Positions 146 through 54,852 of a stretch of 64,000 nucleotides of DNA are shown one piece after another. How positions within the stretch are numbered: the first letter of the stretch is position 1; every line of letters begins with the position of its first letter. The stretch comes from Candidatus Eiseniibacteriota bacterium. Lineage in GTDB: Bacteria; Eisenbacteria; RBG-16-71-46; CAIMUX01. The position numbers and the translations under genes were made by a program. The DNA lies in assembly GCA_016712505.1 (NCBI GenBank), contig JADJQY010000005.1:249258-313257 (forward strand), given 5' to 3'. The notes beneath the pieces were generated by a model. It was not told where the DNA came from, ran no database searches, and saw only the letters and a list, made by a program, of their open reading frames with translations.

Positions 146-1213
146 CTACACCTCGCGCAGGAGATCCCCGGGCGCCTCCGCGCCGACCCCGTTCCGCCCG
201 GCATTGGGCAGGAATGCGCCCGCGGCGCGCAGGTGTTCGGCCGCCTCTTCCGGCGGGGTGGGATTGATGTAGAACCCCGTCCCCCACTCGAATCCGGCGA
301 CCTTGGTCAACTTCGGCATGATCTCCACATACCAGTGGAAGTGGTGCTCCTCTTTCCACTCGTTGAGCGGTGAGGTGTGGAGCACGAAATTGAACGGCGG
401 TCGATTGAGGGTGACGTTGATCCGCTGCAGGGTCTCGCAGAGCAACGCGGAGAAGGAGAGGATCTGGTCGTCGCGCATCTCCTCGAAGCTCGCCTGGTGC
501 TTCTTCGGCATGACCCAGGTCTCGAACGGAAAGCGCGCCGCGAACGGCTCGAAGCAGATGAAGTCCTCGTTCTCCGCCACCACCCTCCGCGCCGCGGTCC
601 GCTCCTGGTCGACGATGTCGCAGAGGATACACCGCTCCTTGAGCTGGAAGTGCTGCAGGAACCCGTTCAGAAGTTCCACCGTTCGCCGGGGCACGATCGG
701 AGTAGCGATCAATTGCATGTGGCTGTGCTCGAGCGATGCGCCCGCCGCCTCGCCGTGGTTCTTGAAGATCTGGATGTAGCGGAAGCGCTTGTCCTTCGAC
801 AGGTCGGTGATCCTCTCCCGACAGGCGCGGATCACCCGGGCCACCTGCGCCACTGGCAGATCGGCGAGATCGTCGTCGTGCTCGGTGGTCTCGATGATCA
901 CCTCGTGCGCGCCGATGCCGTTCATCTTGTCGTAGATCCCCTCGGCTTTGCGCAGCAGCTCGCCCTCGATCTGGAGCGCGGGAAACTTGTTCGAGACCAC
1001 GCGCACATCCCAGCCCGGCGTGTCCGGACGCCCCCCGTCGGAGCGAATCGAGTAGACCTCCGGCGGAGTCTTCTCCTCGTTGCCCGGACAGAACGGACAG
1101 AAACCGCTCTTCTTCGCGGTCTGCGTCGGCCCGAAGTCCGACGGCCGCTTCCCCCGCTCGGTCGAGATGATGACCCAACGACCGACGATCGGATCTCGGC
1201 GGAGTTCAGGCAT
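146..1213 (-). CDS. galT: galactose-1-phosphate uridylyltransferase-like (HIT-superfamily hexose-1-P nucleotidyltransferase)
   Basis: N-terminal CPFCPGNE zinc motif and an HSHMQ (HxHxQ) active-site motif, typical of GalT. The stop codon is TAG. Confidence 0.65.
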   Translation of the reverse strand: MPELRRDPIVGRWVIISTERGKRPSDFGPTQTAKKSGFCPFCPGNEEKTPPEVYSIRSDGGRPDTPGWDVRVVSNKFPALQIEGELLRKAEGIYDKMNGIGAHEVIIETTEHDDDLADLPVAQVARVIRACRERITDLSKDKRFRYIQIFKNHGEAAGASLEHSHMQLIATPIVPRRTVELLNGFLQHFQLKERCILCDIVDQERTAARRVVAENEDFICFEPFAARFPFETWVMPKKHQASFEEMRDDQILSFSALLCETLQRINVTLNRPPFNFVLHTSPLNEWKEEHHFHWYVEIMPKLTKVAGFEWGTGFYINPTPPEEAAEHLRAAGAFLPNAGRNGVGAEAPGDLLREV

Positions 1214-1406
1214 GGTGCGTCTTCCTCGCTTCCGTCTTTGGCGAGAGCAGTCTTGCCGTTCCCGCGTGTAACCGGCTTAGACCCCGCTCTTGCCTCTTAC
1301 CGTGCAGGACTCGCCTTCCGGGAGTCCCGCAGTCCCTGCGATCCCTCGAAGGCTGCGCGGAGAATCGCCCTCTCGGCCGGGCCTAGCACCTCGCCTCGCC
1401 TTCCCA

Positions 1407-2567
1407 TCACGATTTCGGCCGTTTCGAGGAACTTGTCCAGCGCGTACTCCGATCCCCCGGGACCGCTCCCCAGGCGAAGTCGGGCACCCACTTCTCCGCC
1501 ACCGCCGGGTCGCCGAACAGGTTCGCGCCGAGCCCCACCACCGTGCCGGTGTTGAGCAGGCAGCCGATCCGAGTCTTCACATGGTCGCCAAGAAAGCTCC
1601 CCACCTTCTTGAGCCCGGTGGGAACCTCGACACCGTTCAGTTCCAGCCGCACGTAGGAGTAGTTGTTCTTCAGATCGGAGGTGGTTGTCAAGGCGCCCAG
1701 GTTGATCCACTCGCCCAGATAGCTGTGCCCCAGGAAGCCGTCGTGCGCCTTGTTGACAAACCCGAGGGCGACGCTCGCCTCGACCTCTCCTCGGATCCGG
1801 CACTGGAGCCCGACGGCGCTACCGCTGCCGATCTTCCCCCCAAGCAACCGACTCCTCGGCCCGGCGAAGAACGGACCCTTGATCCAGGTGTGCGGCTCCA
1901 CCTCGCACCCCTCGGCGAGTACGACCGGCCCCTCCCGGGCGTCGAGCACCGCCCCGTGATCGATCCGGCAGCCGCCACCCAGGCGGATCGCCTCGGTGGC
2001 GTACCCCGCCGTGGGGGCGAGCGCGGGAGGGGGCAGATCCCCGACCAGCCGCTCGAGGTCGGGCCCGATCAGCGCCTCGTGGTGACGCAACAGGTCGGCC
2101 AGGCCGAGGAGCAGCCGCGCGTCCGGAAGCTCGATCGTCCTGCTCGCGGCGGCGGCGGCGCGGGTCAGCCGTTCCGACAGCTCCGCCTCTCGCTGCTCAG
2201 CACTGCCGAGGGCAGCGACCATCCCCGTTCCCAGGCGGAACGCGATCAGGCGATCCTGACTGCGGGCGACCTGGTCCGGCTCGAGCGTTCGCAAGCTGGC
2301 CAAGCTGGTCGCTTCGGGGACGAGGAGATCACTCACCCAGAGATCACCGACCTCCGGTGCAACCTGCGAGAAGGCGCATCGATTGCGACCGATCGGGGCG
2401 AGGAGCGCGCGGGTGACCAACGTGACCTCCGCCCGGTGCGGGGCCGCCAACCGCTCCCACCGTTCCTGCATCCGCTCCACCCCAACCATCAGGCGGGAAG
2501 CGGGCCGAACCCAGGTGAACGGCCGCAGGGCGACCGACGCGGGATCGTCGTAGACCCGGAGTTTCAT
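1407..2567 (-). CDS. hexapeptide-repeat (left-handed beta-helix) protein, putative acyl- or nucleotidyl-transferase
   Basis: The C-terminal 200 aa is rich in imperfect hexapeptide repeats (for example LGGGCRIDHGAVL and IGSGSAVGLQCRI). The N-terminal 180 aa is unassigned. The start overlaps the SPOR gene stop (TAGATG). Confidence 0.45.
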   Translation of the reverse strand: MKLRVYDDPASVALRPFTWVRPASRLMVGVERMQERWERLAAPHRAEVTLVTRALLAPIGRNRCAFSQVAPEVGDLWVSDLLVPEATSLASLRTLEPDQVARSQDRLIAFRLGTGMVAALGSAEQREAELSERLTRAAAAASRTIELPDARLLLGLADLLRHHEALIGPDLERLVGDLPPPALAPTAGYATEAIRLGGGCRIDHGAVLDAREGPVVLAEGCEVEPHTWIKGPFFAGPRSRLLGGKIGSGSAVGLQCRIRGEVEASVALGFVNKAHDGFLGHSYLGEWINLGALTTTSDLKNNYSYVRLELNGVEVPTGLKKVGSFLGDHVKTRIGCLLNTGTVVGLGANLFGDPAVAEKWVPDFAWGAVPGDRSTRWTSSSKRPKS

Positions 2568-3347
2568 CTAGCGCGCCACCGTCTGCGGGGTCACGGGAAC
2601 GAGGAAGGCGTCGGCGTAGCCGAGGCCGACCGCCTGTTCGAGCCAGACCAGCGCCTCGGCGCGCGATCCGGCGGCGGTGCGCACCTTGAAAAGACCGTTC
2701 TCCGACTCGACGAAGAGTGGCAGGCGCAGGAACTCCGACATCGTGGCGCGCCGATCGTCCGCCACCTTCTGCGTTCCGGTGGCGAAAAGCTGAACGCGAT
2801 AGCGAAGTTCGGCCCCGTCCCGGTCGACTGGGGCCGGGCGCACCCCATCCCGGCCAGCCCCATCCCGGCCAGCCCCAGCCGGGTCGACCCCAGCCGGCGG
2901 GGCGTTGCTAGCGGGGGCAGGAGCTGCCGAGCGCGTAAGCGCGTCCGCGGGGCGAGTCGCCGGGGGAACGCCCCGGTCGTCAACCCGCTTGGCGGCGTCC
3001 CGTTCGTCCTCGAGCTTTGCAGTCTCCGGGGTGAACGGCTCCTCCTCCGGGATCGCCTGGGGCTCGCGCGGCTGGCGCACCTGCGCCGCCAGCGCAGGAG
3101 TGTCCTTCTTCTCCCGGCCGGACAGCGGGAATGCCTCTGCCGCATCACTGGCGGTCTGGTTGGCCGGATCCTCCGAGGGGTAGACCCGATTCACCCCCGG
3201 CACGACGATGGCCAGGGGGGGCGCCCCTTCCTGTTCCGTGGCCTGGGGGTGCACCACCGGAGGGTTCACCGGACCCCGCGGCGGCGGCTCGGGTGTGGTC
3301 GCGGGAGCAGGTTGCTGTTCCGCCACCGGGGCCGGCGGACGCACCAC
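2568..3347 (-). CDS. SPOR domain protein (peptidoglycan-binding), Pro-rich linker
   Basis: C-terminal SPOR-like segment YRVQLFATGTQKVADDRRATMSEF...FKVRTAAGSRAEALVWLEQAV. The N-terminus probably extends upstream to about 3443, where a signal/transmembrane-like segment is encoded in frame. Confidence 0.55.
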   Translation of the reverse strand: MVRPPAPVAEQQPAPATTPEPPPRGPVNPPVVHPQATEQEGAPPLAIVVPGVNRVYPSEDPANQTASDAAEAFPLSGREKKDTPALAAQVRQPREPQAIPEEEPFTPETAKLEDERDAAKRVDDRGVPPATRPADALTRSAAPAPASNAPPAGVDPAGAGRDGAGRDGVRPAPVDRDGAELRYRVQLFATGTQKVADDRRATMSEFLRLPLFVESENGLFKVRTAAGSRAEALVWLEQAVGLGYADAFLVPVTPQTVAR

Positions 3348-3443
3348 GGCGCGCTTGGAGGCGCAGCCCGGGGCGACCGCGAACAGCAGGGCGATCCAGA
3401 CCGCACCAGCGAGCGCCGGGAGCGCCCGGGGATCGCGACTGAA

Positions 3444-4538
3444 CTAGAAGTGCCTGGCAAACCGTGCATCGAGTTTTCCCTCCTCGACCAGTCGACGGAT
3501 CTCCTGCGCGCGATCCTTCGCGCACACCAGTGTGGCGTCCCCGACGCGCACCACGATCATCTTTTCGATCCCGAGCACGGCAAGCAGCCCGCCATCCTCG
3601 GAGTAGAGCAAGCAGTCGGCGCTGTCCTGCGCCAGGACCGGGCCGCGCACGCGATTCCCTCGCGCGTCGACCGGCTGCTGATCACCCCACGCCGGCCAGG
3701 AGCCGAGATCGCTCCAGGCGAAGGGAGCCTCCACCACCGCCACATCCTCCGCCCGCTCCGCGAGCGCGTAGTCGATCGAGATCGAGGGGCAGGCTTGGTA
3801 GTAGGCCGACCACTCTTCCGCCGTCACGCCGCGGGACAGGGCATCCCGCAGACGATCGAGAGGGGGAGCCATGTCGGGACAGTGCCGACGCAGGAGCCGC
3901 GCCACGCCGGCCGCATCGAAGAGAAAGATCCCGCTGTTCCAGTAGCACCGTCCACCCGCGAGATAGGCTTCCGCGCGATCGACGCTCGGCTTCTCGTGGA
4001 AGCGGCGGACGCGATAGGCGTGCAAGCCGGTCGGCGCGGACCGCGGAAGGGGGAGCGCCTCGTCCCGCTCGATGTAACCGTACCCCGTCTCGGGGTAGCT
4101 CGGGGTGATGCCCAGGGTCACGACGCGTTCGGGGTGTTCGGCGAGAAGAGTTTCCGCCACCTTCACCGAACGCCAGAATTCTTCGGTGTCGGGAATCCAG
4201 TGATCGGAGGGAAGCACGACCAGGGCACCTCCCCCTCCGGCCAGGATCGACTCCGCCGCGGCCCCCAGGGCGGGCGCAGTGTTCCGCCCCGTCGTCTCCC
4301 AGAGGAAGTGGTCCCGCGGGATGTCGAGCGGGATCTGGTCGAGGCTGGGGCCAAGATCGACCGCCGCGGCGATCCAGCGATGCGAAGACTCCACCCGCGA
4401 GGCAACCCGAGCGATGGTCGCTTCGAGCAGACTTCGGTCCCCGACCAGCGGCAGTAGCTGCTTGGGCCGGAGACGGCGACTGAGCGGCCAGAAGCGCTCT
4501 CCGCGTCCACCGGCCAAAATGACGACATGCAGGCTCAT
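3444..4538 (-). CDS. manC: mannose-1-phosphate guanylyltransferase (GDP-mannose pyrophosphorylase)
   Basis: MSLHVVILAGGRGERFWPLS...LLPL glycine-rich nucleotidyltransferase signature. Start trimmed to an internal ATG at 4538. The stop codon is TAG. Confidence 0.75.
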   Translation of the reverse strand: MSLHVVILAGGRGERFWPLSRRLRPKQLLPLVGDRSLLEATIARVASRVESSHRWIAAAVDLGPSLDQIPLDIPRDHFLWETTGRNTAPALGAAAESILAGGGGALVVLPSDHWIPDTEEFWRSVKVAETLLAEHPERVVTLGITPSYPETGYGYIERDEALPLPRSAPTGLHAYRVRRFHEKPSVDRAEAYLAGGRCYWNSGIFLFDAAGVARLLRRHCPDMAPPLDRLRDALSRGVTAEEWSAYYQACPSISIDYALAERAEDVAVVEAPFAWSDLGSWPAWGDQQPVDARGNRVRGPVLAQDSADCLLYSEDGGLLAVLGIEKMIVVRVGDATLVCAKDRAQEIRRLVEEGKLDARFARHF

Positions 4539-4645
4539 GTGGTCGCGATTATTGAAGTCCGTCCCGCTCCCTTCAACCTCAATCTCAGCGGGCCTGGATT
4601 GAACCGCCCGCGGTGGCGCTGGGCGCCTGTCGGGGAGGGAGGAAA

Positions 4646-5836
4646 CTAGCCGCGGTCGCGCCGGGCGCGGGAGCCCGCATCGCGCGGCGACTCCAGGACC
4701 GTCAGTTTGGGCTGCCCTTCCGGCCGGGCTTGACTGGCGTCGTGCCCTGCTCCGGAGAGGAGGTCGAGGTAGACCGCCTCGGTCGCCTCGGTGATCTTCG
4801 CCCAGGAGTAGTGCTGTTCGGCGTGCCGGCGACAACGGCGCGCCACCTCATCGACCTGCTCCGGATGTGCCAGGAGGTGGGAGAGTTTGTCCCGCAGGTC
4901 GAGGACGTCGCGGTTGCGGAAGGTCACCGCACAGTCCTCGATCACCTCCAGGTTCTCCGGGATGTCGCTCGCAAGGACACATTTGCCGTGCGATATCGCC
5001 TCGATGAGCGAGATCGAGAGCCCCTCCAGGATGGAAGGTTGAACCACCATGTAAGCGTTCGACCACATCTCCTCGAGCAGGTCGCCGTAGACGTAGCCCA
5101 CCATGTGGATCCGCTCATCGCCGTTCCGAATGCGCATGAGCGAATCGACGTAACCATCTGAAAAGCTGGATCCTCCGGCCATCACCAACCGGGTATCGGT
5201 CTTGAGCTGGCTCCAGGCCTCGAGAAGGTAGTGGCACCCCTTCTCCGGAACCAGACGCCCGACGTAGAGCACGTAGCGGTGCTTGTCCAGGCCGTACTTC
5301 TTGAGCTTGTTCGGGGGGCGGAACACCCCCGGGTTGGCCCCATTGGGGATGAACGCGGTGTCGACGTTGTACTTCTCCAGGAAGTACTCCCGCAGAGTCT
5401 TCGAGACCACGATGGTCTTGTTCGGGAAGTGGATCGCCGGGGTCTCGCAGGCCTTGAGGAACCAGGAGGCGAGCTTGCCCCACTTGCCCCGCTCCCAGTC
5501 CAGCCCGTGCACCGTGACGACCGTCTTCGGCCCCCAGAGCCGCGCCAGGCGGGCGAAGACCGAGGGGCCCAGGGCGTGGTAGTGGATGATGTCGTAGCTG
5601 CGGAAGAGGGAGTCGACGGTCGCGAGCGCACAGTGGGTGATCGTGTCGAGGTGCTTGGTGTTGACGCTCGGGAGGCGACGGATCCGCACTCCGCGGTAGG
5701 TTCCCTGCTGGTGCGAGTAGTGAAAGCGGCTGTAGACGTCGACCTCATGGCCTCGTTCGACCAGACGGGTGCCGATCTCCTCGACATGCCGTTCGATCCC
5801 GCCATAGGTGGCCGGGATGCCCTTCTGGCCCACCAT
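4646..5836 (-). CDS. glycosyltransferase family 4
   Basis: N-terminus KIAMVGQKGIPATYGGIERHVEEIG and a C-terminal GT4 EX7E-like region. The start is uncertain (ATG at 5836 or TTG at 5848). Confidence 0.7.
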   Translation of the reverse strand: MVGQKGIPATYGGIERHVEEIGTRLVERGHEVDVYSRFHYSHQQGTYRGVRIRRLPSVNTKHLDTITHCALATVDSLFRSYDIIHYHALGPSVFARLARLWGPKTVVTVHGLDWERGKWGKLASWFLKACETPAIHFPNKTIVVSKTLREYFLEKYNVDTAFIPNGANPGVFRPPNKLKKYGLDKHRYVLYVGRLVPEKGCHYLLEAWSQLKTDTRLVMAGGSSFSDGYVDSLMRIRNGDERIHMVGYVYGDLLEEMWSNAYMVVQPSILEGLSISLIEAISHGKCVLASDIPENLEVIEDCAVTFRNRDVLDLRDKLSHLLAHPEQVDEVARRCRRHAEQHYSWAKITEATEAVYLDLLSGAGHDASQARPEGQPKLTVLESPRDAGSRARRDRG

Positions 5837-5844
5837 GGCGATCT

Positions 5845-7107
5845 TCAAACCCTGGCCTCCCCGCCCGACGTCTTGCCGGAACTCACATCCTGATAGATGG
5901 CGAGCAACCGGTCGAGGTGCATCTCGATCCCGTGCTCCCGCTCGATCTTCGTCCGGGCGGTCCGCCCCATACGTGGCAGATCGGCCGCCGGACCGGTCAT
6001 CCAAAGCAGAGCGTCGGCCAGCGAAGCCGGGTCGCCGCTCTGATGCAGACGCCCGGTCTCACCATCGATCACCAGTTCCGGGATTCCGCCGATTTTCGCC
6101 CCTACCACCGGTCGTCCCAAGGCGAAAGGTTCGAGAATCGCATATGGGAGGTTTTCGTACCACTCCGACGGGACGACCGCGAAGGCGGCATCACGAATCG
6201 CCTGGTGGAGCGCGTCCCCCGAGCGGTAGCCAAGAAACTCCACCCTCCCGGGGGCGGCAGTTTGTGCCCGGGCCTCCAGTTCGCCCCGCAGCGGCCCCTC
6301 CCCCAGGACCCGTAACTTCAATTGGCCCTGCGGCAAACGCGCCATGGCCTCAATCAGGGTGGCAATTCCCTTTTCCCGCGAGAGGCGACCAACGTAGACG
6401 CAGTGAAACGGCTCCCGAGCGGGCTCGGAGGCTGGGCGGTACCGCTCGATCGCCACGAAGTACGGCAGGTGGACCAGCCGCTCGCGTTCGATCCCAAACT
6501 CCGCGACCTTTTCCAGCATGAAGCGGCTCGGGCAGATGAAGCGGTCGACCTTGCGGTAGGTGCCGAGCCCCTCGTGCAGGAATGCCTCCGCGGCCCCGAC
6601 CAGACTCGCCCCGGTCGAGTCGAGGAGACAGCGATGCCGGACCGCCTCGAGGTACTTCCCCCCCTTGCACCGCTCACAGATCCGGCCCTCGGTCATGAGC
6701 AGATAGGCCGGACAGACCAGTTTGTAGTCGTGCAGGGTCTGCACGACCGGCACGCCGGCACCCCGGAGCGCGGCGATCACCGAAGGAGAGAGCTGGTGGT
6801 AGATGTTGTGCAGGTGGGCCACGGCAGGCCGGCTGACGCCCGTCAGCGCGTGCACCGCCCGCTCCGCCTCGCGGTTCCAGATCGCCCGGAGCCCGTGACG
6901 GATCTTCGCCAGCGGCCCGAGGCCGCCGCGGTAGTCGACCTCCTCGACGAAGCGATCCCCGGGTGCGCCGGGCAGGTTCGAGGAGTGGGCCATCGCGAGG
7001 GGACTGACTTCATGCCCCCGGGCGCGCAGCGCCTCCGAGATGTCGAGGTAGTACCGTTCCGCCCCTCCCTTCACGTAATGGAACTTGTTGATCTGGAGAA
7101 CCCTCAC
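5845..7107 (-). CDS. glycosyltransferase family 4
   Basis: MRVLQINKFHYVKGGAERYYLDISEALRARGHEV, a GT4 N-terminal motif. The C-terminal domain carries the conserved E...E region. Overlaps the next gene by 4 nt. Confidence 0.75.
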   Translation of the reverse strand: MRVLQINKFHYVKGGAERYYLDISEALRARGHEVSPLAMAHSSNLPGAPGDRFVEEVDYRGGLGPLAKIRHGLRAIWNREAERAVHALTGVSRPAVAHLHNIYHQLSPSVIAALRGAGVPVVQTLHDYKLVCPAYLLMTEGRICERCKGGKYLEAVRHRCLLDSTGASLVGAAEAFLHEGLGTYRKVDRFICPSRFMLEKVAEFGIERERLVHLPYFVAIERYRPASEPAREPFHCVYVGRLSREKGIATLIEAMARLPQGQLKLRVLGEGPLRGELEARAQTAAPGRVEFLGYRSGDALHQAIRDAAFAVVPSEWYENLPYAILEPFALGRPVVGAKIGGIPELVIDGETGRLHQSGDPASLADALLWMTGPAADLPRMGRTARTKIEREHGIEMHLDRLLAIYQDVSSGKTSGGEARV

Positions 7108-8237: not shown

Positions 8238-8269
8238 GCGCAGCGGCGGTGAAAGGGTCTCAGCTCCGC

Positions 8270-9814: not shown

Positions 9815-9867
9815 TGGCTCTCCTTCCGGTGGAAAGCTAGGGGCGAGGGGAGACCTGCCCGGAGTCC

Positions 9868-10932: not shown

Positions 10933-11020
10933 CTCGAGCGGGTGGATGGAAGAGACGCAAAAATCCTAGCACAGCGCTTTCCAGGATGGCAAACCCTGTA
11001 CGGAATCGATTGTTGAGTGG

Positions 11021-12526: not shown

Positions 12527-12532
12527 CCGGTC

Positions 12533-13576
12533 TCAGTCCCGCGCCGGCCCCTCGAGGCCTGGCCTTCCCGCCTCGGGCGCCTGCTTGGTTATCGACCCGG
12601 TTTCCGCCGGGCGCGAGGACGAGATACCCGGGACTTCCTTCAGGCTCACCTGCTCCAGGGCGAAACAGAGGAGCCCGACTGCGGTCGTCGGGATCCACTG
12701 GCTGGCGTGGTAGATCAGGGTGAAGGTCAGCGCGATCGACGGATCGACTCCGTACGGCTTGAGCGCCAGGGTTCCGGCGTACTGCAGCGTGCCGACGAAC
12801 CCGGGGGCGGACGGGACCATGGTTCCGATCGCCATCACCACCAGGACGACCACCCCAGCCTCGGCCGGAAGATCGAGATCGAGCGCGCCGAAACAGAGCA
12901 CCACCACCCCGATGAGCGAGGCCCACATCGCGACGGAGAGCAGCAGCGCGGCCAGCATGGCGCGAGGGTGGCCCAGGACGCCGAGACCATCGCGAAAATT
13001 CCGGGTGATCTCGAGGGCCCGCGTTCGGAGGCGCTCCGGCGCGAACCGTTCGACCAGCCGAAGAAAGATCCCCGGGCGGACCTTGAGCAGCACCAGCAGG
13101 GCGTAGATCGGGGCCGAGACGGCGACCAGATACCCGCCCCACCCCCGGACCGCCTCCGGGAGGCGGTGCGAAGCGAGCACCAGCGCGAACAGCCCGAGCA
13201 GGACGAAGGTGTCGAAGAGGCGCTCGATCACGATCGAGGCCAGCGCGGAACTCCGGCTGATGCCGGCGCTCCGACCCACCAGGTAGGCGCGCCACAGTTC
13301 CCCCAGACGCGCCGGAAAGAGATTGTTGCCCATGAATCCGATCATGGTGGCATTCCACAGGGGGCGCATCCCGATCGGGCGGACGGTCAGGAGCAGGAAG
13401 CGCCAACGCCAGGCCCTCAGGAAGTAGGCGGCCATGGTGAGGACCACGGTAGCCAGGAGCAGGTCGAGCCGCACGCGCTGCAACGCAGCCAGCACCTCCC
13501 CGAGCTGCGCGTTCCGGAACGCGAGCCAGAGAAAGAACGCGCTGAGCAGCGTCCCGATCAGGAGTTTCGTCTTCAC
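12533..13576 (-). CDS. flippase-like / lysylphosphatidylglycerol-synthase transmembrane-region (UPF0104) family membrane protein
   Basis: LRAWRWRFLL and GNNLFPARLGELWRAYLV motifs. Multi-pass membrane protein. Confidence 0.6.
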   Translation of the reverse strand: MKTKLLIGTLLSAFFLWLAFRNAQLGEVLAALQRVRLDLLLATVVLTMAAYFLRAWRWRFLLLTVRPIGMRPLWNATMIGFMGNNLFPARLGELWRAYLVGRSAGISRSSALASIVIERLFDTFVLLGLFALVLASHRLPEAVRGWGGYLVAVSAPIYALLVLLKVRPGIFLRLVERFAPERLRTRALEITRNFRDGLGVLGHPRAMLAALLLSVAMWASLIGVVVLCFGALDLDLPAEAGVVVLVVMAIGTMVPSAPGFVGTLQYAGTLALKPYGVDPSIALTFTLIYHASQWIPTTAVGLLCFALEQVSLKEVPGISSSRPAETGSITKQAPEAGRPGLEGPARD

Positions 13577-14736
13577 CCGGCCTGTCCTATCGAGCCGATC
13601 TCGCGTCGCAGCAACGCGTGGATCCCCGCCAGGTCGGTCGGCGGATCGAGGTCACGGCAATTGCTGAGCAGCGTGGTGTACATGCTGGCATCGTTTGGAT
13701 GATACCCGTGCATTCCCCGCACCGGCTGCCCGGACATGAACGAAGGAACGAGAATCTCTCCCTCGCGGAGCAGGAAGATCGCCTCTCCGTAATCGGCCTC
13801 CGGAAACCAGGCACGTTCAGCGCGGAGCTCTCGCTCATCGAGCAGGCGACCATAGGGTAGTTCCGCCAGCAGGGCGAGCACCGCACGTCGGGCGGCGTCG
13901 GTCCCGAACCAGAAGCGGGCCATCGTGCTGTCGAGGAAGAAGAGGAAATCACGCGGCACGGACAGTCCGAGCCGATCGAGACGCGACCAGAGATCGTGCG
14001 TGGCGGAGACTTCGGCCATTCCGTGGTCGCCGAAGGCAAAGGCGCGCACCTCTCGGTACCTGCGCCGCGCAGCCACAAGCAGGTCTCGCATCCGTCGCTC
14101 CAGTGAGGCCAGACAGGCCGCGGTCGCCTCACCCTCCGGGCCGTGCGCGTGCATGGTGGCGTCGAGTTCGGCGCTGTAGAGAAAGAGAACCGGGCGCTCG
14201 CCGCGATCGATCTCCTCCCCCAGCTCGGCGAAGGCGCGGGCCTCCGGCACCGTCCAGTTCCAGAGTCGACCTCCCGCCGCGGCCACGAGGTCGGCCAATC
14301 CGAGGTGCGCCCCGAATCCTCCCGGGGAGAACACATCGTGGCGTTGCGACAGGTCGAACCGCGAGAGGAGCGAGAGCGGCACCTCGTAGAGTGAGAAGTA
14401 CCCGGTGACCCCGGCGCGGCGGAGCGAAGCGGCGGCCCACCTCCGCAGCGTCCACTGCCGCCCGGTCATCCCGGAGAGAGGCCGGAGCCACCAATCGAGC
14501 CGGGAGAACACCCCGTCTCGTCCCGCGCGCCGATACATCGATAGATGCCGGTGCTCTTCGGGCAAGAGCCCCGACATCAGCGTGGGCAGGGCGGCACTCG
14601 AGTAGCCGAGGACGCTCCTGACCGGGTGCCGGGCGGAATCGAACTCGGGAAGAAACGCGTGAGATCCGGCCTGGGTGTAGCCCAGCGCGTCGATCAGAAA
14701 GATCAGCACCAGCCGTTCGGACACAGGTCTCCTCAT
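13573..14736 (-). CDS. nucleotide pyrophosphatase/phosphodiesterase (NPP, type I phosphodiesterase / alkaline-phosphatase superfamily)
   Basis: LIFLIDALG, SSAALPTLMSGLLPEEH (nucleophile-loop motif), GDHGM and GMHGYHPND. Confidence 0.65.
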   Translation of the reverse strand: MRRPVSERLVLIFLIDALGYTQAGSHAFLPEFDSARHPVRSVLGYSSAALPTLMSGLLPEEHRHLSMYRRAGRDGVFSRLDWWLRPLSGMTGRQWTLRRWAAASLRRAGVTGYFSLYEVPLSLLSRFDLSQRHDVFSPGGFGAHLGLADLVAAAGGRLWNWTVPEARAFAELGEEIDRGERPVLFLYSAELDATMHAHGPEGEATAACLASLERRMRDLLVAARRRYREVRAFAFGDHGMAEVSATHDLWSRLDRLGLSVPRDFLFFLDSTMARFWFGTDAARRAVLALLAELPYGRLLDERELRAERAWFPEADYGEAIFLLREGEILVPSFMSGQPVRGMHGYHPNDASMYTTLLSNCRDLDPPTDLAGIHALLRREIGSIGQAG

Positions 14737-14752
14737 GGCAGCCTGGGCCGCC

Positions 14753-15862
14753 TCAGGGCAGCGCAGGCAAGCGTTCCGCGCTCGCCGCCTCCGGTGGCAG
14801 TTCGCGTCCCATCCAGCGCCGGGAGTATGCGTTCCACTCTTCGTCGGGCTCTGCCCAGTAGCGCAGGGCCAGGGCGAGGCGCCGGAGCTCCGGAGTGGCG
14901 ATCGGATCTCCGTTCAGCATGCAACGGCCCAGGACGCGCATCGCCCCCCCCTCCCCCGGACGCAGGCGAAAGTGATCCCGCCAGGCCCGCCAGAGATCCC
15001 GGAGCGCGAGCTGATCGCGCAGCACGATCCGTTCCCGGGGCAGATCCGGAGATTCCATCAGCACCCGGCGCAAGGCAAGCCGATAGGGCTGGAGCGTCGA
15101 GAAGTCCGGGCCGGAGGATTCGGGCTGTTCGAAGTACCGACCGGCCAGCCGCGCGAGTTCGCCCACCGAATCCGGGGCGGGCACCTGGCCGATCAGCCGC
15201 AGGCGGTTCCGCTGACCGACGCAATAGGCGCCGCGAAAGACCAGCCAGGCGGTCCAGTTCGCCGTCAGGGCCTTGGCCAGGGCGTGCGTGAACCGGGCAT
15301 CGCTGCGGGGATCGGTCCCGTGGTCTCTCTCCCGCTCGGCCGACGCACTCCAGAGTTCAAGCGCGCGGTTACCCAGCAACCTGAACCCCTCGTAGGCGGG
15401 GATTCGGGCCGGAGCCGGCGCTACCAGGGGCAAGAATGTGCCCGGGCGCGACCAGAGAATCGTCCCCGCCGTCACGAGATCACACCAGCCGAGGGTAGGA
15501 GCCTGGCGCCCGAGGGCGGCGGTCGGATAGATCCCGATCGTCAAGTGGGGATCCCCGTCCTCGAGCAAGGTGTCGGCGGCATGCTGCGCGGCGCGACGCA
15601 AGGCGGTCGACGGCCAGTGGTCGACGATGAACGCCAGATCGAGGTCGGAGAGTACGACCGGGACGGGCCCGATCCGGCCGAGCGCCTCGCCGGTCGAGGC
15701 GCTCCCCCCGAGGTAGATCGCACGCACGGCGCACGGTTCGAGTGCCGCCGACACGGGACTCAGGGCGCGCGCGAGCACCTCCCGGCAGCGCTGATCGACC
15801 CACGCTTGGTGAGAGAACGGCTGTTCGGGGAGGGTCCAGGCGGAGAGAAAGCTGCGCGGCAC
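14753..15862 (-). CDS. uncharacterised protein with an N-terminal pol-beta-type nucleotidyltransferase motif
   Basis: YLGGSASTGEALGRIGPVPVVLSDLDLAFIV matches the hG[GS]...D.D pattern of minimal nucleotidyltransferases. The remaining roughly 250 aa is unassigned. Confidence 0.45.
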   Translation of the reverse strand: MPRSFLSAWTLPEQPFSHQAWVDQRCREVLARALSPVSAALEPCAVRAIYLGGSASTGEALGRIGPVPVVLSDLDLAFIVDHWPSTALRRAAQHAADTLLEDGDPHLTIGIYPTAALGRQAPTLGWCDLVTAGTILWSRPGTFLPLVAPAPARIPAYEGFRLLGNRALELWSASAERERDHGTDPRSDARFTHALAKALTANWTAWLVFRGAYCVGQRNRLRLIGQVPAPDSVGELARLAGRYFEQPESSGPDFSTLQPYRLALRRVLMESPDLPRERIVLRDQLALRDLWRAWRDHFRLRPGEGGAMRVLGRCMLNGDPIATPELRRLALALRYWAEPDEEWNAYSRRWMGRELPPEAASAERLPALP

Positions 15863-15878
15863 GCGAGCCTGGCCGCGG

Positions 15879-16655
15879 CTACAGACGACGGTAGATGAAG
15901 CCTGGGATCGAATAGCGGCGTTCGTTGAGGACCACGCCGAGGGCGCGCCCGCGGGCCTGATTGATCAGCCGGATCGCCTTCTGCACGATCTCGCGTCGCG
16001 TTCGGTTGGCCCGCACCACCAGCACCATTCCGTCGGTGCCGGCCCCGATCAGGCCACTCTCCGGAGCGAAGAGCAACGGCGAGGTGTCGAGGATGGAAAA
16101 GGCGTAGTGGCGATCCACCTCGCGGCGGAACGCGCCGAGTCGCTCCGAGGAGAGGAGATCGAGCGGCGAACCGGCATTCGAGCCTCGAGGCAGGAAGTGG
16201 AGATTGGCCAGCTCGGTGGAGCGCACCGCCTCCTCCAGGCGAGTCTTCCCTTCGAGCACGTCGGAGAAGCCGAGCCCGTCGGCCGCTTCCTTGAGCGCCC
16301 CGGAGAGGCTTCTCGGGTATCCGGCGATGTCCGCGTCGACCAGCAGCACCGGCCGCTCTTCCCAGTGCGCCAGCTCCCGGGCGAGAAGCAGCGCGAGGGT
16401 GCTCGATCCCTCCCCGGGCACCGCGCCGCTGAAGGCGACCATGCAGGAGCGGGTGGTATCGAGTTCGAGCAAGATCCGCTGGCGGAGGCCCTCGATCTCC
16501 AGTTCGCGGGTCCCGCCAACACCGCGCACCTTTGCACCTCCGGCAAGGGCCGCGCCGCGTCCGTCCCGCGGGGTCAAGGGCTCGAGTGGACCCTCAGCCG
16601 GCGGCCGCTTGCTCCCCGCTCCTCCCTTCTCCAGAGCATCGTAAATGTTGCTCAT
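15879..16655 (-). CDS. BY-kinase-like (CpsD/ExoP C-terminal type) P-loop ATPase, PEP-CTERM-locus tyrosine-autokinase-like
   Basis: SGAVPGEGSSTLA (Walker A without the canonical Lys), LLVDADI (Walker A' region), VVLNERRY...IYRRL C-terminal tail. The start ATG overlaps the upstream TGA (TGATGA). Confidence 0.55.
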   Translation of the reverse strand: MSNIYDALEKGGAGSKRPPAEGPLEPLTPRDGRGAALAGGAKVRGVGGTRELEIEGLRQRILLELDTTRSCMVAFSGAVPGEGSSTLALLLARELAHWEERPVLLVDADIAGYPRSLSGALKEAADGLGFSDVLEGKTRLEEAVRSTELANLHFLPRGSNAGSPLDLLSSERLGAFRREVDRHYAFSILDTSPLLFAPESGLIGAGTDGMVLVVRANRTRREIVQKAIRLINQARGRALGVVLNERRYSIPGFIYRRL

Positions 16656-17503
16656 CAGGTGCTCCGGTAGAAGGAGGCGGTGGGCGCATTCTCCGCGACC
16701 CAATCGAGCTCTCGCGCCGCTTCGCGCACATGGTCGGCCGTGATCTTCTCCGCACCCTTGACGTAGCCGACGAGAAGCGAGCGGTCGCAGATCTGGTTGA
16801 TCAGGCGGGGCAGGCCGGCCGACTGGCGGCCGACTTCCTCCACCGCGCCGAAATCGAACAGCCCCGTGACCCTTCCCTGGCTGGCGACCGCGAGGCGGAA
16901 GTCGATGTACTCGCGCACCGCCTCGCCCGGCAGGCGGGAGAGATCGTAGACCCCGGGGATCCGCTGCCGCAGCTGGCGCAACGAGTGACGCCCGAGCAGC
17001 GTGCGCAGCTCCGGCTGGCCGACGAGCACGATCTGGATCAGCTTGGTGTTGGCCGTCTCGAAGTTTGAGAGAAGGCGGAACTCCTCCAGCGACTCCTCCG
17101 AGAGGTTCTGGGCCTCGTCGATGATGAGCACCGCGTTCCCCTGCTTGTCCCGCATCCGGAGGAGGAACTGCTGCAGGGCGAGGAGCAGGTCGACCTTGCT
17201 CCGGCCCGCAGGCTGCACATTGAAGTCGAGCAGCGCGAGATAGAGCAACTGTTTGAAGTTGAGCCGCGCGTTCATGACGATCGCGGTCTCGATCTCCTCG
17301 GGAAGCTGCCCGAGCAGGGTCCGGATGAGCAACGTCTTTCCCGTCCCCACCTCGCCGGTGAGGGCGAGGAACCCCTTCCGCTGTTCGATCCCGTAGTGCA
17401 GGTAGGCCAGCGCATCCCGGTGGCTGCGGGTGAGGAAGAGAAACCGAGGATCTGGGGTGATCGAAAACGGCGACTCCTGCAGCCCATAGTATGACTCGTA
17501 CAT
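16655..17503 (-). CDS. ExeA/GspA-like AAA ATPase (PEP-CTERM-locus putative secretion ATPase type)
   Basis: Walker A GEVGTGKT and Walker B LIIDEAQNL. Confidence 0.7.
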   Translation of the reverse strand: MYESYYGLQESPFSITPDPRFLFLTRSHRDALAYLHYGIEQRKGFLALTGEVGTGKTLLIRTLLGQLPEEIETAIVMNARLNFKQLLYLALLDFNVQPAGRSKVDLLLALQQFLLRMRDKQGNAVLIIDEAQNLSEESLEEFRLLSNFETANTKLIQIVLVGQPELRTLLGRHSLRQLRQRIPGVYDLSRLPGEAVREYIDFRLAVASQGRVTGLFDFGAVEEVGRQSAGLPRLINQICDRSLLVGYVKGAEKITADHVREAARELDWVAENAPTASFYRST

Positions 17504-17515
17504 CTCGCCCTCCCG

Positions 17516-18898
17516 TTACCGCAGCTTCCCGACCGAACCCAGAACCGGCAGCCGCAGGTGTGTTTCCACCTCGGTGGCGTCCTTCAGGGAGTGATCGAGC
17601 CCGTCGAGCAGGAATGCCAGGGCAAATCCGACGAAGAGCGACAGGAGCGGAATCAGCGCCATGCGGACGATGTCATTGGTCCGCAGGGCGACCGCCTTCT
17701 GGGCAGCCTGCAGCACCAGGACGTTGTAGTCGGAAGTGCCGGTGCGTTCGATCCGAGCCTGGATCTGCTTCTCGACCAGCGCGTCATAGTCCGCCTGAAG
17801 CGACTTGAGCACGCGGTCGAACGAGGTCAGTCGCGCTTCCTTGGACGGAAAGCCGGACAGTTCGGAGTCGACGTAGTGCAGCGTGCCGAGCAGCGCCTCC
17901 TCGCGGGCCTTCAGCACCTCGACCTTCGACTCCAGGTGTTTCAAGTAGCTGTCCACTTCCCGCTTCAATTCCTTCTGCAGCTCCTCCATCCGGGTCTTGT
18001 GCCCGAGCACTTCCGGATGCTGCTCGGTGTACTGCCCAGCGGCGGTGAAATAGGCGGTCCGTTCCTGGATCAGTTGCCGCTTCACCTCCGCCACCGTCTG
18101 GTCGTCGCTGTTGTCCGCTTCGGAGAAGGGATAGACTTCGTAGTCCCCCTTGGCGCTGCCGCGGATGCGGGACCGCATCACCTCTACCTTGGCCTCTTCC
18201 GACGCGAGATCCGCGCGGACATCGTTCAGTTTCAGTTCGGTCGAACGACGCACCTCGATCAGGCTGGAACGCTCCTCCGAGATGCGCACGACCGACTCCT
18301 CCGCCATGAAGTCGGCCCGGCGCTGTTCCCAATCCTCGAGTTGCAGGCGCAGGTCTTCGATCTCTTCGCGGAAGAACTTGTCCACTTCAGGCACCGCGCG
18401 CACCTGCTGCCGGAACTCCGAGTAGGCCTGCGTGATGGCGCGGCAGCCATCGCGCGAGGCGATCGGATCGAGATCCTGATACTTGATGTAGATGACGCTC
18501 GACTTGCCGTTGATCGCCGCCGTGACCCGTCCGGGTTCGAGTTCCACCGGCTTGCCGTCCCCGCCGGTGGCGTGTCCCGCGTCGAGCAGCTTCTGGGCCA
18601 ACTCGATGATGTGACCGCTGGTCACGGTCTCCATCTCCGAGTTGAGTTCCTCTTCCCAGGAGAGGAGCGGCTTCATCCGGGAGGTGTAGGCGCTTTCGGG
18701 CTGGCCGCGGCTGACCAGCACGCGGGCGACCGACTCGTAGAGCACCGGCCGGGTGGCATTGAGCAGCGCCACCACTCCCAGCCCGGCCAGGAAAGCGGCG
18801 AACACGACCCACTTCCGCCGGAAGCAGACCGCCGCGAAGTCGCGGAGGCTCGCCTCGCGGGGAGTGTCGCCCTCTCTTTGAATGACTGCGCCGTCCAT
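17516..18898 (-). CDS. polysaccharide chain-length determinant (Wzz/PCP family) protein
   Basis: N-terminal and C-terminal transmembrane segments flank a long coiled-coil periplasmic region. The start was trimmed to the ATG at 18898. The stop codon is TAA. Confidence 0.65.
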   Translation of the reverse strand: MDGAVIQREGDTPREASLRDFAAVCFRRKWVVFAAFLAGLGVVALLNATRPVLYESVARVLVSRGQPESAYTSRMKPLLSWEEELNSEMETVTSGHIIELAQKLLDAGHATGGDGKPVELEPGRVTAAINGKSSVIYIKYQDLDPIASRDGCRAITQAYSEFRQQVRAVPEVDKFFREEIEDLRLQLEDWEQRRADFMAEESVVRISEERSSLIEVRRSTELKLNDVRADLASEEAKVEVMRSRIRGSAKGDYEVYPFSEADNSDDQTVAEVKRQLIQERTAYFTAAGQYTEQHPEVLGHKTRMEELQKELKREVDSYLKHLESKVEVLKAREEALLGTLHYVDSELSGFPSKEARLTSFDRVLKSLQADYDALVEKQIQARIERTGTSDYNVLVLQAAQKAVALRTNDIVRMALIPLLSLFVGFALAFLLDGLDHSLKDATEVETHLRLPVLGSVGKLR

Positions 18899-18935
18899 GA
18901 CTCTGGTTAACCCCGACTTCGTGTTCCCGATCGCC

Positions 18936-19820
18936 CTAGCGGAAAATCGTGCGCGAGGAGTTGACGTTGAAGGCGTTCCAACCCTCGAGGAAGAGGGTGA
19001 ACGGCGCGATGTTCTGCCGCATCCACTGATCGACGAAGACGTTGAGATTCCCGACGAAGGTCTTCGGTACGAAAATAATGTCGAAGGGGCGGAGCGGCAT
19101 ATCGGTCCGGGCGCCGCCATCGATCAGCGCCTGCTTGAGGTCGAGGGAGAACACCTCCGCGCTCTCCGCGCCGGTCCTGCGGATCACCACCACCTGATTC
19201 TGCTTGCCGCTCGACTTGAACCCACCCGCCTGGGCCAGGGCCTGCAGCGCGGTCATCCCCTTGTGAAACTGATGGTCGCCGGGGATCTCGACCTCCCCCA
19301 TGACGTAGACCCGCTGTTCACCAAAGGTATTGACCATGAGCTGACAATCGGGGAAGCGCAGGATCCGCCCGAGCTTCTGGCGAATCTCCTGCCCCACGTC
19401 GTCCGCAGTCCGGCCGAGCGCGAATATCGTTCCTTCTACTCCCGGATAAGTGAACGACCCGTCGGGGAGGACGCGGACCGCGCGGGAGAGATCGGGCTGC
19501 CCGACGACCAGGACGGAGAGTTCGTCCCCAACGCCGATGAAGTAACGCTGCGTGGTGTCCGCCTCGGCCGGCAGGGCAACCGGGGGCTTGATCTCGGACC
19601 CGGAGGCATCGGGTCCCTCCTCCCCGGGCGACGGCTCCTCGATCCCCGGCTCCCCCGGCGAGGGCGGCGTGGGGTCGCGATACGGAGACCGCGGCGCGTC
19701 GGGAGAGACCAGCGGGGGAAAGTCCCGCTGCGGCTCGGGCTGGTCCTGGGCCGAGCCGAGTGCCGGCGCGAACAGGAGCGGCATGAGGGTGCACAGGATC
19801 AGGAGCACGAGCGTCGACAT
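18936..19820 (-). CDS. polysaccharide export protein (Wza-like, Poly_export + SLBB domains)
   Basis: Signal peptide MSTLVLLILCTLMPLLFAPALGSAQ, then YFIGVGDELSVLV and SFTYPGVEGTIFALG, followed by an SLBB-like region. First gene of the operon. The stop codon is TAG. Confidence 0.7.
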   Translation of the reverse strand: MSTLVLLILCTLMPLLFAPALGSAQDQPEPQRDFPPLVSPDAPRSPYRDPTPPSPGEPGIEEPSPGEEGPDASGSEIKPPVALPAEADTTQRYFIGVGDELSVLVVGQPDLSRAVRVLPDGSFTYPGVEGTIFALGRTADDVGQEIRQKLGRILRFPDCQLMVNTFGEQRVYVMGEVEIPGDHQFHKGMTALQALAQAGGFKSSGKQNQVVVIRRTGAESAEVFSLDLKQALIDGGARTDMPLRPFDIIFVPKTFVGNLNVFVDQWMRQNIAPFTLFLEGWNAFNVNSSRTIFR

Positions 19821-19874
19821 CCCTGTAGGGGTCGCGTCGAAACGTCGAGCGCATGGGGAGACAACGCCCGCGCA

Positions 19875-19886
19875 TTGCGCGCGCAA
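19875..19886. promoter_or_regulatory. perfect 12-bp palindrome TTGCGCGCGCAA in the EPS-operon upstream region
   Basis: Lies about 55 bp upstream of the Wza start codon in a 280-bp non-coding region. Possible regulator operator. Confidence 0.25.
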
Positions 19887-20098
19887 CGCCTTCCCCCGGC
19901 GGCGCCTCCCATCCTTGGAACGGGCCATGCTTCGAGATTCCTGCGGTGATTCTCAACCCTTGCGACGCGCTATCGAACGCCGCAAAGCAATGTCGTCGGC
20001 TCGAACGCGGGGGACCTCACGATCCGGGCACGCTAGCAAAGCGCCCGGCGCGACGTCAACAATCCCCAAGCGGGCCAACCTCTTGATCGGCGCGGCGC

Positions 20099-26385: not shown

Positions 26386-26491
26386 CCTGCCGACTGGCAG
26401 CCCTGCCGTCCGGTAACCTGCCGTCCGGTAACCTGCCGTCTGGTAACCTGGCGTCCGGTAACCTAGCGTCCGGCAGCCTGCCAGGTTCCAG
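26386..26491. repeat. tandem array B: about 7 x 15 bp (CCTGCCGTCCGGTAA), inverted relative to array A
   Basis: cctgccgactggcag / cctgccgtccggtaa x2 / cctgccgtctggtaa / cctggcgtccggtaa / cctagcgtccggcag / cctgccaggttccag. The reverse complement TTACCGGACGGCAGG resembles the array A/G core TACCGACGG. Confidence 0.85.
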
Positions 26492-54032: not shown

Positions 54033-54059
54033 CTTGATCACTCCTCATGGCGTCGCCCG

Positions 54060-54274: not shown

Positions 54275-54311
54275 GAACTCGGCCTCCCAGCAACCCGAAG
54301 CGAGGTGTTCG

Positions 54312-54818: not shown

Positions 54819-54852
54819 CCCAAGCTTCTCGGTCCGGAGAAGGAGCCTGGTC

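Follow-up and report, generated by a model that had tools for sequence, protein, structure and literature searches.

A lineage-conserved locus in Candidatus Eisenbacteria, probably for a mannose-containing polysaccharide, with an export module related to the XrtA/PEP-CTERM gene set

What does a run of polysaccharide genes make when its export proteins resemble those of PEP-CTERM loci and no exosortase stands beside them, and does it belong to such a system at all? The question is raised by a locus of 17 genes on the minus strand of a 64,000-nucleotide stretch of a Candidatus Eiseniibacteriota genome (contig JADJQY010000005.1, positions 249,258 to 313,257; hereafter the window, i.e., the whole stretch analysed). 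To our knowledge, Candidatus Eisenbacteria have no cultured representative. An earlier note on this DNA had described a single exopolysaccharide (EPS) operon of about 19.7 kb with export genes of the PEP-CTERM type and no exosortase in view. We conclude, with a probability of roughly 0.6, that the locus assembles and exports a mannose-containing envelope or extracellular polysaccharide in Candidatus Eisenbacteria and that it is conserved in this lineage.

For gene calling, open reading frames (ORFs) of the window (G+C content of 64-71%) were filtered on codon-position GC (GC3), which leaves a clean gene set. The 17 consecutive co-directional genes that had been claimed were found at 146..19928 on the minus strand with coding-type GC3, and the start of wza, set at 19820 in the public record, agrees with the earlier note. 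That record, JADZDC010000176.1 (GCA_020851285.1), is a Candidatus Eisenbacteria metagenome-assembled genome (MAG) about 99.9% identical to the window, and identical or near-identical proteins are annotated as 'MAG: Candidatus Eisenbacteria bacterium'. Proteins were scored against Pfam and NCBIfam profiles using curated cut-offs and gathering scores as thresholds. These searches verified most of the family calls, namely Wza, a Wzz-like protein, an ExeA/GspA-like ATPase, a P-loop protein resembling bacterial tyrosine kinases (BY-kinases), a flippase-like protein, Wzy_C, Bac_transf, three GT4 glycosyltransferases, ManC and GalT. Two genes that had been left unnamed encode a protein with a Pol-beta-type nucleotidyltransferase (NTase) fold (14753-15862) and a Phosphodiest protein of the alkaline phosphatase superfamily (13573-14736).

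The export module comprises the first four genes:

18936..19820, minus strand: short OPX protein (for polysaccharide export at the outer membrane), Wza-like, with a signal peptide, a Pro-rich linker, a PES/Poly_export domain, one SLBB domain and a 38-aa C-terminal tail
17516..18898, minus strand: Wzz-like polysaccharide co-polymerase (PCP); TIGR03007 79.0 bits (cut-off 278.85) and TIGR03017 (EpsF) 78.4 bits, both far under the cut-off
16655..17503, minus strand: ExeA/GspA-like AAA ATPase; TIGR03015 288.6 bits over the full length (1-267 of 269; cut-off 324.5), the sole NCBIfam match
15879..16655, minus strand: stand-alone BY-kinase-like protein; TIGR03018 97.1 bits (cut-off 230.65) and the generic TIGR01007 87.8 bits (cut-off 108.05)

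Short OPX proteins are the commonest OPX class (PMC9603273). The one encoded here scores 51.3 bits against Poly_export and 47.2 bits against SLBB_2; its top NCBIfam match is TIGR03027 (111.7 bits, under the cut-off of 180) and the runner-up, at 63 bits, is the EpsY model NF041843. The core aligns end to end with the 186-aa short OPX chain 9n9a, its best sequence match in the PDB. Beyond this chain remains the 38-aa tail, which aligns with the C-terminus of PslD, a protein whose outer-membrane barrel is built from C-terminal strands (PMC13434223). No gene for a Wzp-type beta-barrel porin, the partner that class-3 (truncated) OPX proteins require (cf. PMC9603273, PMC12819527), was found near the OPX gene or in the locus. 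The sole beta-barrel candidate in the window lies 35 kb away from the OPX gene: at 54264-56148 on the plus strand, a 184-aa ORF without family match is followed by a FadL/Toluene_X-like outer-membrane barrel that scores 26.3 bits, under the Pfam threshold of 29.7.

The Wzz-like PCP reaches just 17.6 bits with the Pfam Wzz model, has two transmembrane (TM)-like segments (residues 31-49 and 413-431) and carries no fused kinase. By profile score, the ATPase is closest to the XrtA/PEP-CTERM system-associated ATPase family, and its homologues in Candidatus Eisenbacteria are annotated 'AAA family ATPase' or 'ExeA family protein'. The kinase-like protein lacks the features that define BY-kinases, i.e., a Walker A lysine and a Tyr-rich C-terminal cluster. 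More specifically, its Walker A motif reads VPGEG-S/A/V-[ST]T instead of GK[ST] in the window and two relatives, with S, A or V in the place of the lysine across three lineages, and just two tyrosines are found in its conserved C-terminal ERRYxIPxFxYRRL, while the VDAD and D(T/A)xP motifs are kept. No locus protein matched a Wzb-type phosphatase in Pfam or NCBIfam. The protein is a probable pseudokinase and fits the class of BY pseudokinases known to scaffold PCP-2 proteins (PMC12004946), though more of its P-loop is retained.

Synthesis of the glycan would fall to a second set of genes:

11021..12526, minus strand: polytopic membrane protein with a Wzy_C domain (polymerase or ligase); PF04932 46.3 bits, about 10 TM-like segments
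9868..10683, minus strand: small Bac_transf phosphoglycosyl transferase (priming); PF02397 210.8 bits, start uncertain
8270..9814, minus strand: GT-C glycosyltransferase of the PMT/ArnT superfamily ('GT39'); PMT_2 35.6 bits, PMT 24.8 bits
7104..8273, minus strand: GT4 glycosyltransferase a; TIGR03088 (stp2) 169.4 bits, under the cut-off of 409; 4-nt overlap on each side
5845..7107, minus strand: GT4 glycosyltransferase b; EpsE model NF041876 86.5 bits, under the cut-off
4646..5848, minus strand: GT4 glycosyltransferase c; Cps2T rhamnosyltransferase 103 bits, under the cut-off
3444..4538, minus strand: ManC-type mannose-1-phosphate guanylyltransferase, N-terminal transferase part only; TIGR01479 264.7 bits, under the cut-off of 372.95 (model positions 3-351 of 467)

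A polyprenyl-phosphate primer, a PCP and an OPX protein, by which a Wzx/Wzy-dependent pathway is recognised, are thus all encoded in the locus. The priming transferase scores 279.9 bits with the generic TIGR03025 model versus 152.8 bits with the XrtA-type TIGR03013 (cut-off 393). The public record starts it at ATG 10410, inside the first membrane helix; GTG 10683, the next in-frame start upstream, is the likely one from the sequence and leaves a gap of about 340 bp. An extension of the ORF further upstream to 10932 was rejected, being devoid of coding codon-position GC and unconserved in relatives save for its last ~37 residues. The Wzy_C protein has no NCBIfam match, including the XrtA-linked ligase model, and its domain alone cannot tell a polymerase from a ligase. 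The label GT39 given earlier to the next gene was right as to the PMT_2/PMT relationship and over-specific as to the family: the match to PF02366 (24.8 bits, gathering score 22.7) covers just 70 residues, the best NCBIfam match is the Agl23-type TIGR03663 (51.2 bits, under 126) and the protein is described as a GT-C of the PMT/ArnT superfamily.

From these families the following pathway can be proposed. GDP-mannose would be provided by ManC, and polyprenyl phosphate would be primed by the small Bac_transf phosphoglycosyl transferase. The three GT4 enzymes would assemble a lipid-linked unit. Flipping would be the work of a flippase whose gene lies elsewhere or, possibly, of the MprF-type flippase-like protein of the locus, and the Wzy_C protein of this strain would then polymerise or ligate the unit. 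The stand-alone Wzz-type co-polymerase, scaffolded by the lysine-less BY-kinase-like protein and helped by the ExeA-like AAA ATPase, would hand the product to the short OPX exporter.

The locus was compared with five relatives (ATPase identity of 58-89%, i.e., 89%, 70%, 60% and 58%) together with ±10-kb flanks on long contigs, one of 2.45 Mb. The common gene order is (rbfA-truB-)ribF-rpsO-pnp-(M16-dut-)DUF3108-GSU2086-like-Wza-Wzz-ATPase-kinase-like-NTase-fold-Phosphodiest-LPG_synthase_TM, followed by a variable segment and then by Bac_transf, the GT4 genes and ManC, this last GT4/ManC end being visible where the flank reaches it. Since gene order and position are kept in the relatives, the locus reads as a fixed core-genome feature of the lineage downstream of pnp and not as a mobile accessory island. 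Both Wzy_C and PMT_2 are found in the variable segment of the window and of L005, whereas L006 has only Wzy_C there and L091 has neither; in L092 (15423-18942, minus strand), the Wzy_C slot is occupied by three tandem reverse-strand genes of 346-347 aa without Pfam match. The GT39-like gene, present in L005, is missing from three of the five relatives' loci (L006, L091 and L092) and looks from this distribution like an optional, variable accessory.

Two further genes precede wza in the conserved order:

20099..21076, minus strand: GSU2086-family protein; NF052581 398.1 bits, above the cut-off of 250
21077..21925, minus strand: DUF3108 protein; PF11306 161.9 bits

The pair recurs directly upstream of wza in L004, L005, L091 and L092, including loci that lack the M16 peptidase and dut; its second gene in these four genomes is an unannotated ORF of about 316-329 aa that we assume to be the GSU2086 homologue. 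In L006, one DUF3108 gene of 638 aa stands in this position instead of the pair. It is possible, from this position, that the pair is linked to the export system; searches of solved structures by sequence gave no informative match for either protein as an outer-membrane partner. The GSU2086-family protein has weak similarity to the C-terminal domain of ArgZ/ornithine cyclodeaminase.

Between the export module and the variable segment stands a conserved trio of genes:

14753..15862, minus strand: nucleotidyltransferase-fold protein, 369 aa; no Pfam or NCBIfam family match
13573..14736, minus strand: Phosphodiest/NPP-like enzyme of the alkaline phosphatase superfamily; PF01663 41.2 bits
12533..13576, minus strand: MprF-type 'flippase-like' polytopic membrane protein (LPG_synthase_TM); PF03706 193.9 bits, TIGR00374 105.2 bits (cut-off 43.2)

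The NTase fold of the first protein is well supported by an AlphaFold2 (AF2) model (predicted local distance difference test, pLDDT, 88.4; predicted template-modelling score, pTM, 0.89), in which a Pol-beta-type nucleotidyltransferase is joined to a helical domain and for which the best Foldseek matches are AadA/ANT(3'')(9), HalB and MNT nucleotidyltransferases. G53, E59, D73, D75 and R166 are invariant in 40 distant homologues and are residues of the catalytic type. The family counts about 1570 representatives at E ≤ 1e-3 (50% clustering) and 540 at E ≤ 1e-10, and NTP_transf_2 touches just two of the 40 members, weakly. The adjoining NPP-like enzyme has no TM-like segment and is predicted to be cytoplasmic; the two genes are neighbours in all five relatives, and LPG_synthase_TM is likewise kept in five of five. 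The term 'flippase-like' used before holds insofar as the third protein matches LPG_synthase_TM and TIGR00374; the protein is of the MprF type and no MOP/Wzx flippase. Indeed, no MOP-family Wzx (Polysacc_synt/MOP) was found in the window, its left flank or the loci of the five relatives (±10 kb). Judging by family and neighbourhood, the trio probably modifies the glycan or the lipid carrier, or it may act in flipping.

The missing Wzx and the variable segment bear on a different reading, in which the priming transferase and the three GT4 enzymes of the core would yield a short lipid-linked oligosaccharide in place of a secreted high-molecular-weight EPS. The MprF-like protein would flip it, and transferases that vary between strains (a ligase of the Wzy_C/WaaL/PglL type, or a GT-C of the PMT/ArnT type) would pass it on to lipid, to lipopolysaccharide (LPS) core or to proteins, as in an O-antigen-like or glycoconjugate pathway. 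Wzy_C and PMT_2 do lie in the variable part and are absent from some relatives, and Wzy_C domains occur also in ligases and O-oligosaccharyltransferases. A constitutive envelope component is also suggested by the fixed core position next to pnp, by lptFG elsewhere in the window and by the neighbouring SPOR-like and GlmU-like genes described below. However, the OPX, PCP, BY-kinase-like protein and ATPase, present in every relative, are hallmarks of outer-membrane polymer export and would be needless for a ligase-only pathway. We therefore consider an oligosaccharide pathway improbable and retain polymer assembly and export as the preferred reading. Because the core has no Wzx and Wzy is dispensable, one may also speculate, with little confidence, that the invariant core constitutes a distinct, phosphorylation-independent envelope-glycan pathway, with the MprF-like protein standing in for Wzx and the NTase/NPP pair adding a phospho-linked substituent, the whole being related to the XrtA type and uncoupled from exosortase.

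Several points weigh against polymer assembly and export by the proposed route. The locus offers no beta-barrel partner for crossing the outer membrane, and loss of the Walker A lysine suggests loss of kinase activity, although the two conserved C-terminal tyrosines persist. With no Wzx in the locus and Wzy_C absent from the loci of two relatives (L091 and L092), a classical Wzx/Wzy mechanism can be no more than presumed for the conserved core. The pathway itself is inferred from family membership, and the promoter-like sites considered below are consensus matches, a generic scan counting 2, which does not exceed chance (1.2 ± 1.1).

The resemblance to PEP-CTERM loci can now be assessed. TIGR03027, TIGR03007, TIGR03015 and TIGR03018 are each the top NCBIfam match of one export protein, as the earlier note had supposed, but all four scores (111.7, 79.0, 288.6 and 97.1 bits) stay under the curated cut-offs (180, 278.85, 324.5 and 230.65), with the ATPase as the one near-miss. 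None of the 17 locus proteins matched TIGR03016, TIGR03006, TIGR03019, TIGR03097, EpsI or PrsK/R/T. Close homologues of these accessory families of XrtA loci, though not of EpsH itself, are known from genomes that are PEP-CTERM-negative (Haft et al. 2006, PMC1569441). On these profile scores, the export module stands closest to the XrtA/PEP-CTERM EPS gene set without being a bona fide member of it by curated criteria.

The exosortase itself was searched for in and around the locus. PF09721 and TIGR02602 were unmatched by the window genes and a six-frame search of the window gave no PEP-CTERM-like C-terminus, in line with what had been noted; an exosortase immediately outside the window was looked for as well, and none is present in the 10 kb past the left edge. 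The same is true of the exosortase Pfam model within ±10 kb of the locus in the five relatives. To the left of the window, the public contig carries glgA, an aspartate kinase gene on the opposite strand, genes for an ArnT-like GT-C, AsnB, a thioredoxin-like and a MauE-like protein, tRNA-Leu(TAA) and a PEP-CTERM gene. The latter encodes a PF07589 protein (partial) at the contig end, about 9.5 kb past the left window edge, so the genome does encode a PEP-CTERM protein outside the window. One relative of this protein was found (P0121, 67% identical), ending in ...VPEPATFLLLGLGGLGALALRRRRA (VPEP-TM-RRRR), and the next 8 kb beyond its gene contain no exosortase. A 303-aa protein without Pfam match in L089 was tried as an exosortase candidate and dismissed as a soluble secreted protein and no polytopic exosortase. 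The AsnB protein has the XrtA-system amidotransferase TIGR03108 as its best match (469.9 bits, under 816.9) and passes the generic asparagine synthase model. The stretch from the ArnT-like GT-C to the PEP-CTERM gene (L001 14645-21068, 3.4-10 kb left of the window) recurs in L088-L090 with other neighbours and may be a second glycan or PEP-CTERM-related module. Because a PEP-CTERM gene sits about 9.5 kb outside the window, the exosortase of this genome is probably encoded elsewhere, away from the locus, and its absence here would be no anomaly but ordinary genome organisation. We found no paper in the literature on Eisenbacteria and exosortase.

Could the locus nevertheless be a genuine XrtA/PEP-CTERM-coupled EPS system, the polysaccharide being the matrix partner of PEP-CTERM proteins and the exosortase acting in trans? 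The top matches of the four export proteins speak for it, that of the ATPase reaching 89% of the cut-off over the full length, and so do the best match of GT4 a to the XrtA-associated stp2 family and the genes for AsnB and the PF07589 protein, which share the contig and lie 5-9.5 kb past the window edge. Against this, every subfamily score is under the trusted cut-off, the Wzz-like protein is tied with EpsF, the priming transferase favours the generic model, AsnB is far under the TIGR03108 cut-off (817), and neither the accessory families listed above among the locus proteins nor an exosortase Pfam match (±10 kb of the locus in six genomes, and the 8 kb past the relative's PEP-CTERM gene) were found. 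XrtA coupling is thus rather unlikely, and we keep to a polysaccharide system of the lineage itself. As a caution, top matches below the cut-offs of PEP-CTERM-subfamily models do not prove exosortase dependence, and a 64-kb window without an exosortase is weak evidence in either direction.

Whether the 17 genes form a single operon depends on their junctions and on three promoter-like sites:

20033..20059, minus strand: promoter-like site P1, TTGACG-N15-TGCTAG(CGT), also written TTGACG-N15-TGCTAGCGT, 213 bp upstream of the wza start
10966..10992, minus strand: promoter-like site P2, sigma-70-like, TTGCCA-N15-TGTGCTAG(GAT), also written TTGCCA-N15-TGTGCTAGGAT, directly past the Wzy_C stop, from a consensus scan
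4576-4548, minus strand: promoter-like TTGAAG-17-AATAAT ahead of manC, in the 107-bp gap

The tight packing with many 4-nt overlaps that had been described is correct in part: there are four 4-nt overlaps and one 1-nt overlap, and most other junctions are of 53 bp or less, but a non-coding gap of 340-610 bp separates Wzy_C from Bac_transf, and gaps of 107 and 278 bp precede manC and wza, respectively. P1 is found at the same position in L005 and as a variant, TTGACG...TGTAGGCT, in L006. P2 falls in a 56-nt block that is 86% identical in L005, and L006 has TTGACA...TGTTATCCT at the aligned position. The pattern TTGNCR-N13-18-TGCTAG has just two matches in 64 kb, namely P1 and P2, and was derived post hoc, which makes it suggestive only. 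That the long gap ahead of the priming transferase harbours a regulatory RNA was considered and rejected (no Rfam match, fold z-score of -1.2); across the whole window Rfam gave nothing at the gathering score and one chance-level match (E 0.95).

The genes at the 3' end of the locus were assessed in the same way:

2568..3347, minus strand: Pro/Ala-rich protein with a weak C-terminal SPOR-like domain (residues 182-250); PF05036 17.3 bits, E 0.006
1407..2567, minus strand: alternative bacterial GlmU-type enzyme; TIGR03991 271.6 bits (cut-off 225.3)
146..1213, minus strand: GalT-like hexose-1-phosphate nucleotidyltransferase; TIGR00209 118.9 bits (cut-off 102.1)

The SPOR label given to the first of these does not hold at the Pfam threshold of 21 bits, the SPOR-like pattern being visible by inspection only, and the 'hexapeptide-repeat protein' is corrected to the TIGR03991 enzyme. 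In the window, a 1-nt deletion at 3427 breaks the 5' end of the SPOR-like gene (259 versus 300 aa in the public record) and another at 1467 shortens the 3' end of the GlmU-like gene (386 versus 423 aa). Just outside the window, 108 bp downstream of GalT, lies glgA (L001 11177-12658; TIGR02095 546.8 bits, above 328). GalT is a widely conserved enzyme. Among 80 GalT loci from other genomes, 79 of them of other phyla, glgA is directly downstream of GalT in 18, mostly in Ignavibacteria, Zixibacteria, Acidobacteria and Nitrospirota, and the export module (Wza to Wzy_C) is present in none. Two GT4 genes and ManC are shared by just one of the 80, the distant Eisenbacteria relative L023, in which the order is ManC, a 278-aa ORF in the position of the SPOR-like gene, GlmU-like, GalT and GlgA. 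Because the GalT-GlgA pairing recurs across phyla without EPS genes, the best reading of GalT is as a member of a glycogen or sugar-nucleotide module that is not specific to EPS, and its context suggests a role in glycogen or ADP/UDP-glucose metabolism rather than in galactose or EPS metabolism. The TIGR03991 enzyme is likewise best read as a housekeeping, EPS-unspecific supply of UDP-GlcNAc. By gene order, a separate conserved tail, made up of the SPOR-like, GlmU-like and GalT genes, runs into glgA, and the combination of GT39 and SPOR genes that had seemed unusual for an EPS operon resolves in part into a variable accessory gene and a member of this tail.

A single 19.7-kb operon of 17 genes for one product, the SPOR-like, GlmU-like and GalT genes included, would be consistent with the shared direction of all genes, junctions that mostly overlap or span no more than 37 bp and the lack of a convincing intrinsic terminator between genes. 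It is hard to reconcile with the 340-610 bp gap that holds a position-conserved promoter-like element, with the 107-bp gap and promoter-like site ahead of manC, with the recurrence of the GalT-glgA pair in other phyla without EPS genes and with the housekeeping nature, by family definition, of TIGR03991 GlmU-type enzymes. The single operon proposed earlier is therefore doubtful, given the position-conserved promoter-like sites ahead of wza and the priming transferase, and we hold it to be very unlikely in its full form; two or three transcription units are most likely from the arrangement, i.e., wza to wzy, the priming transferase to the GT4 genes, and perhaps manC onward.

The remaining genes of the window, at 20-64 kb, are housekeeping genes, including dut, the M16 peptidase, pnp, rpsO, ribF, truB, rbfA, infB, nusA and rimP, further an M28 peptidase, SprA, lptF/G, accB/C, aroB/Q, a PilT-like ATPase, HtrA and a sigma/anti-sigma pair (sigma-factor gene at 53403-54041), as well as the FadL-like barrel, rnc, fabF/G/D/H, acpP, plsX and yceD. 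Between accC and accB, a 303-aa ORF of the T2SSE ATPase family (47568-48479, minus strand) covers profile positions 134-288 of 370 only and may be PilT-like or truncated. Differences between the window and JADZDC010000176.1 amount to about 0.1-0.3%. They include single-base differences, among them deletions (window 1467, 3427, 23748, 28362, 39839 and 42430), and insertions of 15 nt (26442-26456) and 25 nt (34646-34670). The SprA-like type IX secretion gene (36592-42590, minus strand), a single 2185-aa gene in the public record, is split into two ORFs (1082 and 931 aa) in the window because of the 1-nt deletion at 39839. Such frameshifts relative to the public record look like assembly errors.

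A surface-polysaccharide locus at the same chromosomal position in six of six genomes is probably a defining feature of the envelope of these bacteria and a useful marker of the lineage. Some of its details deserve the attention of specialists, namely the lysine-less kinase-like protein, the NTase-fold family without a Pfam model and the absence of Wzx (and of Wzy in some relatives); no current concept is changed by them.

Finally, the locus can be placed among known systems. It has in common with XrtA/PEP-CTERM (EpsH) loci (Haft et al. 2006, PMC1569441) a short OPX, a stand-alone chain-length protein, an ExeA-like ATPase, a stand-alone kinase-like protein, Bac_transf and GT4 genes, subfamily models as top matches, and PEP-CTERM and AsnB genes on the same contig. 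It differs from them in that no exosortase, EpsI, TIGR03016 outer-membrane protein, deacetylase, FemAB-like protein or PrsK/R/T is encoded at or near the locus in six genomes, in that the ATPase gene precedes the kinase-like gene, in the extra conserved trio of NTase, NPP and MprF-like genes and in scores below the cut-offs. The EPS pathway of Myxococcus xanthus, with the short OPX EpsY/WzaX, the PCP-2 EpsV, the BY pseudokinase EcpK and the porin WzpX (PMC9603273, PMC9601211, PMC12004946), likewise combines a short OPX, a PCP without fused kinase and a separate kinase-like protein without catalytic residues. Here, in contrast, no gene for a Wzp-type 18-stranded beta-barrel lies beside the OPX gene, the OPX protein has the extra 38-aa tail, an ExeA-like ATPase is present, and the kinase-like protein, unlike EcpK, retains most P-loop features and two C-terminal tyrosines.

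PslD-PslE of Pseudomonas aeruginosa (PMC13434223) resemble the present proteins in an OPX made of PES and one SLBB-type domain, in the alignment of the tail and in the degenerate kinase-like domain of PslE; that domain is fused to the PCP in Psl whereas the proteins are separate here, the Psl locus encodes a Wzx (PslK), and the similarity is low (53.9 bits). With Wza-Wzb-Wzc of the Escherichia coli group 1 capsule and colanic acid systems, the locus has the PES and SLBB domains and the PCP/OPX logic in common. It departs from them in its single SLBB domain and lacks a Wzb phosphatase, a fused Wzc kinase, the Walker A lysine, a Wzx and any evidence of a C-terminal outer-membrane helix. By its gene content, the locus appears to work like a Wzy-type/OPX-PCP system, which is genuine, well conserved and fairly ordinary.

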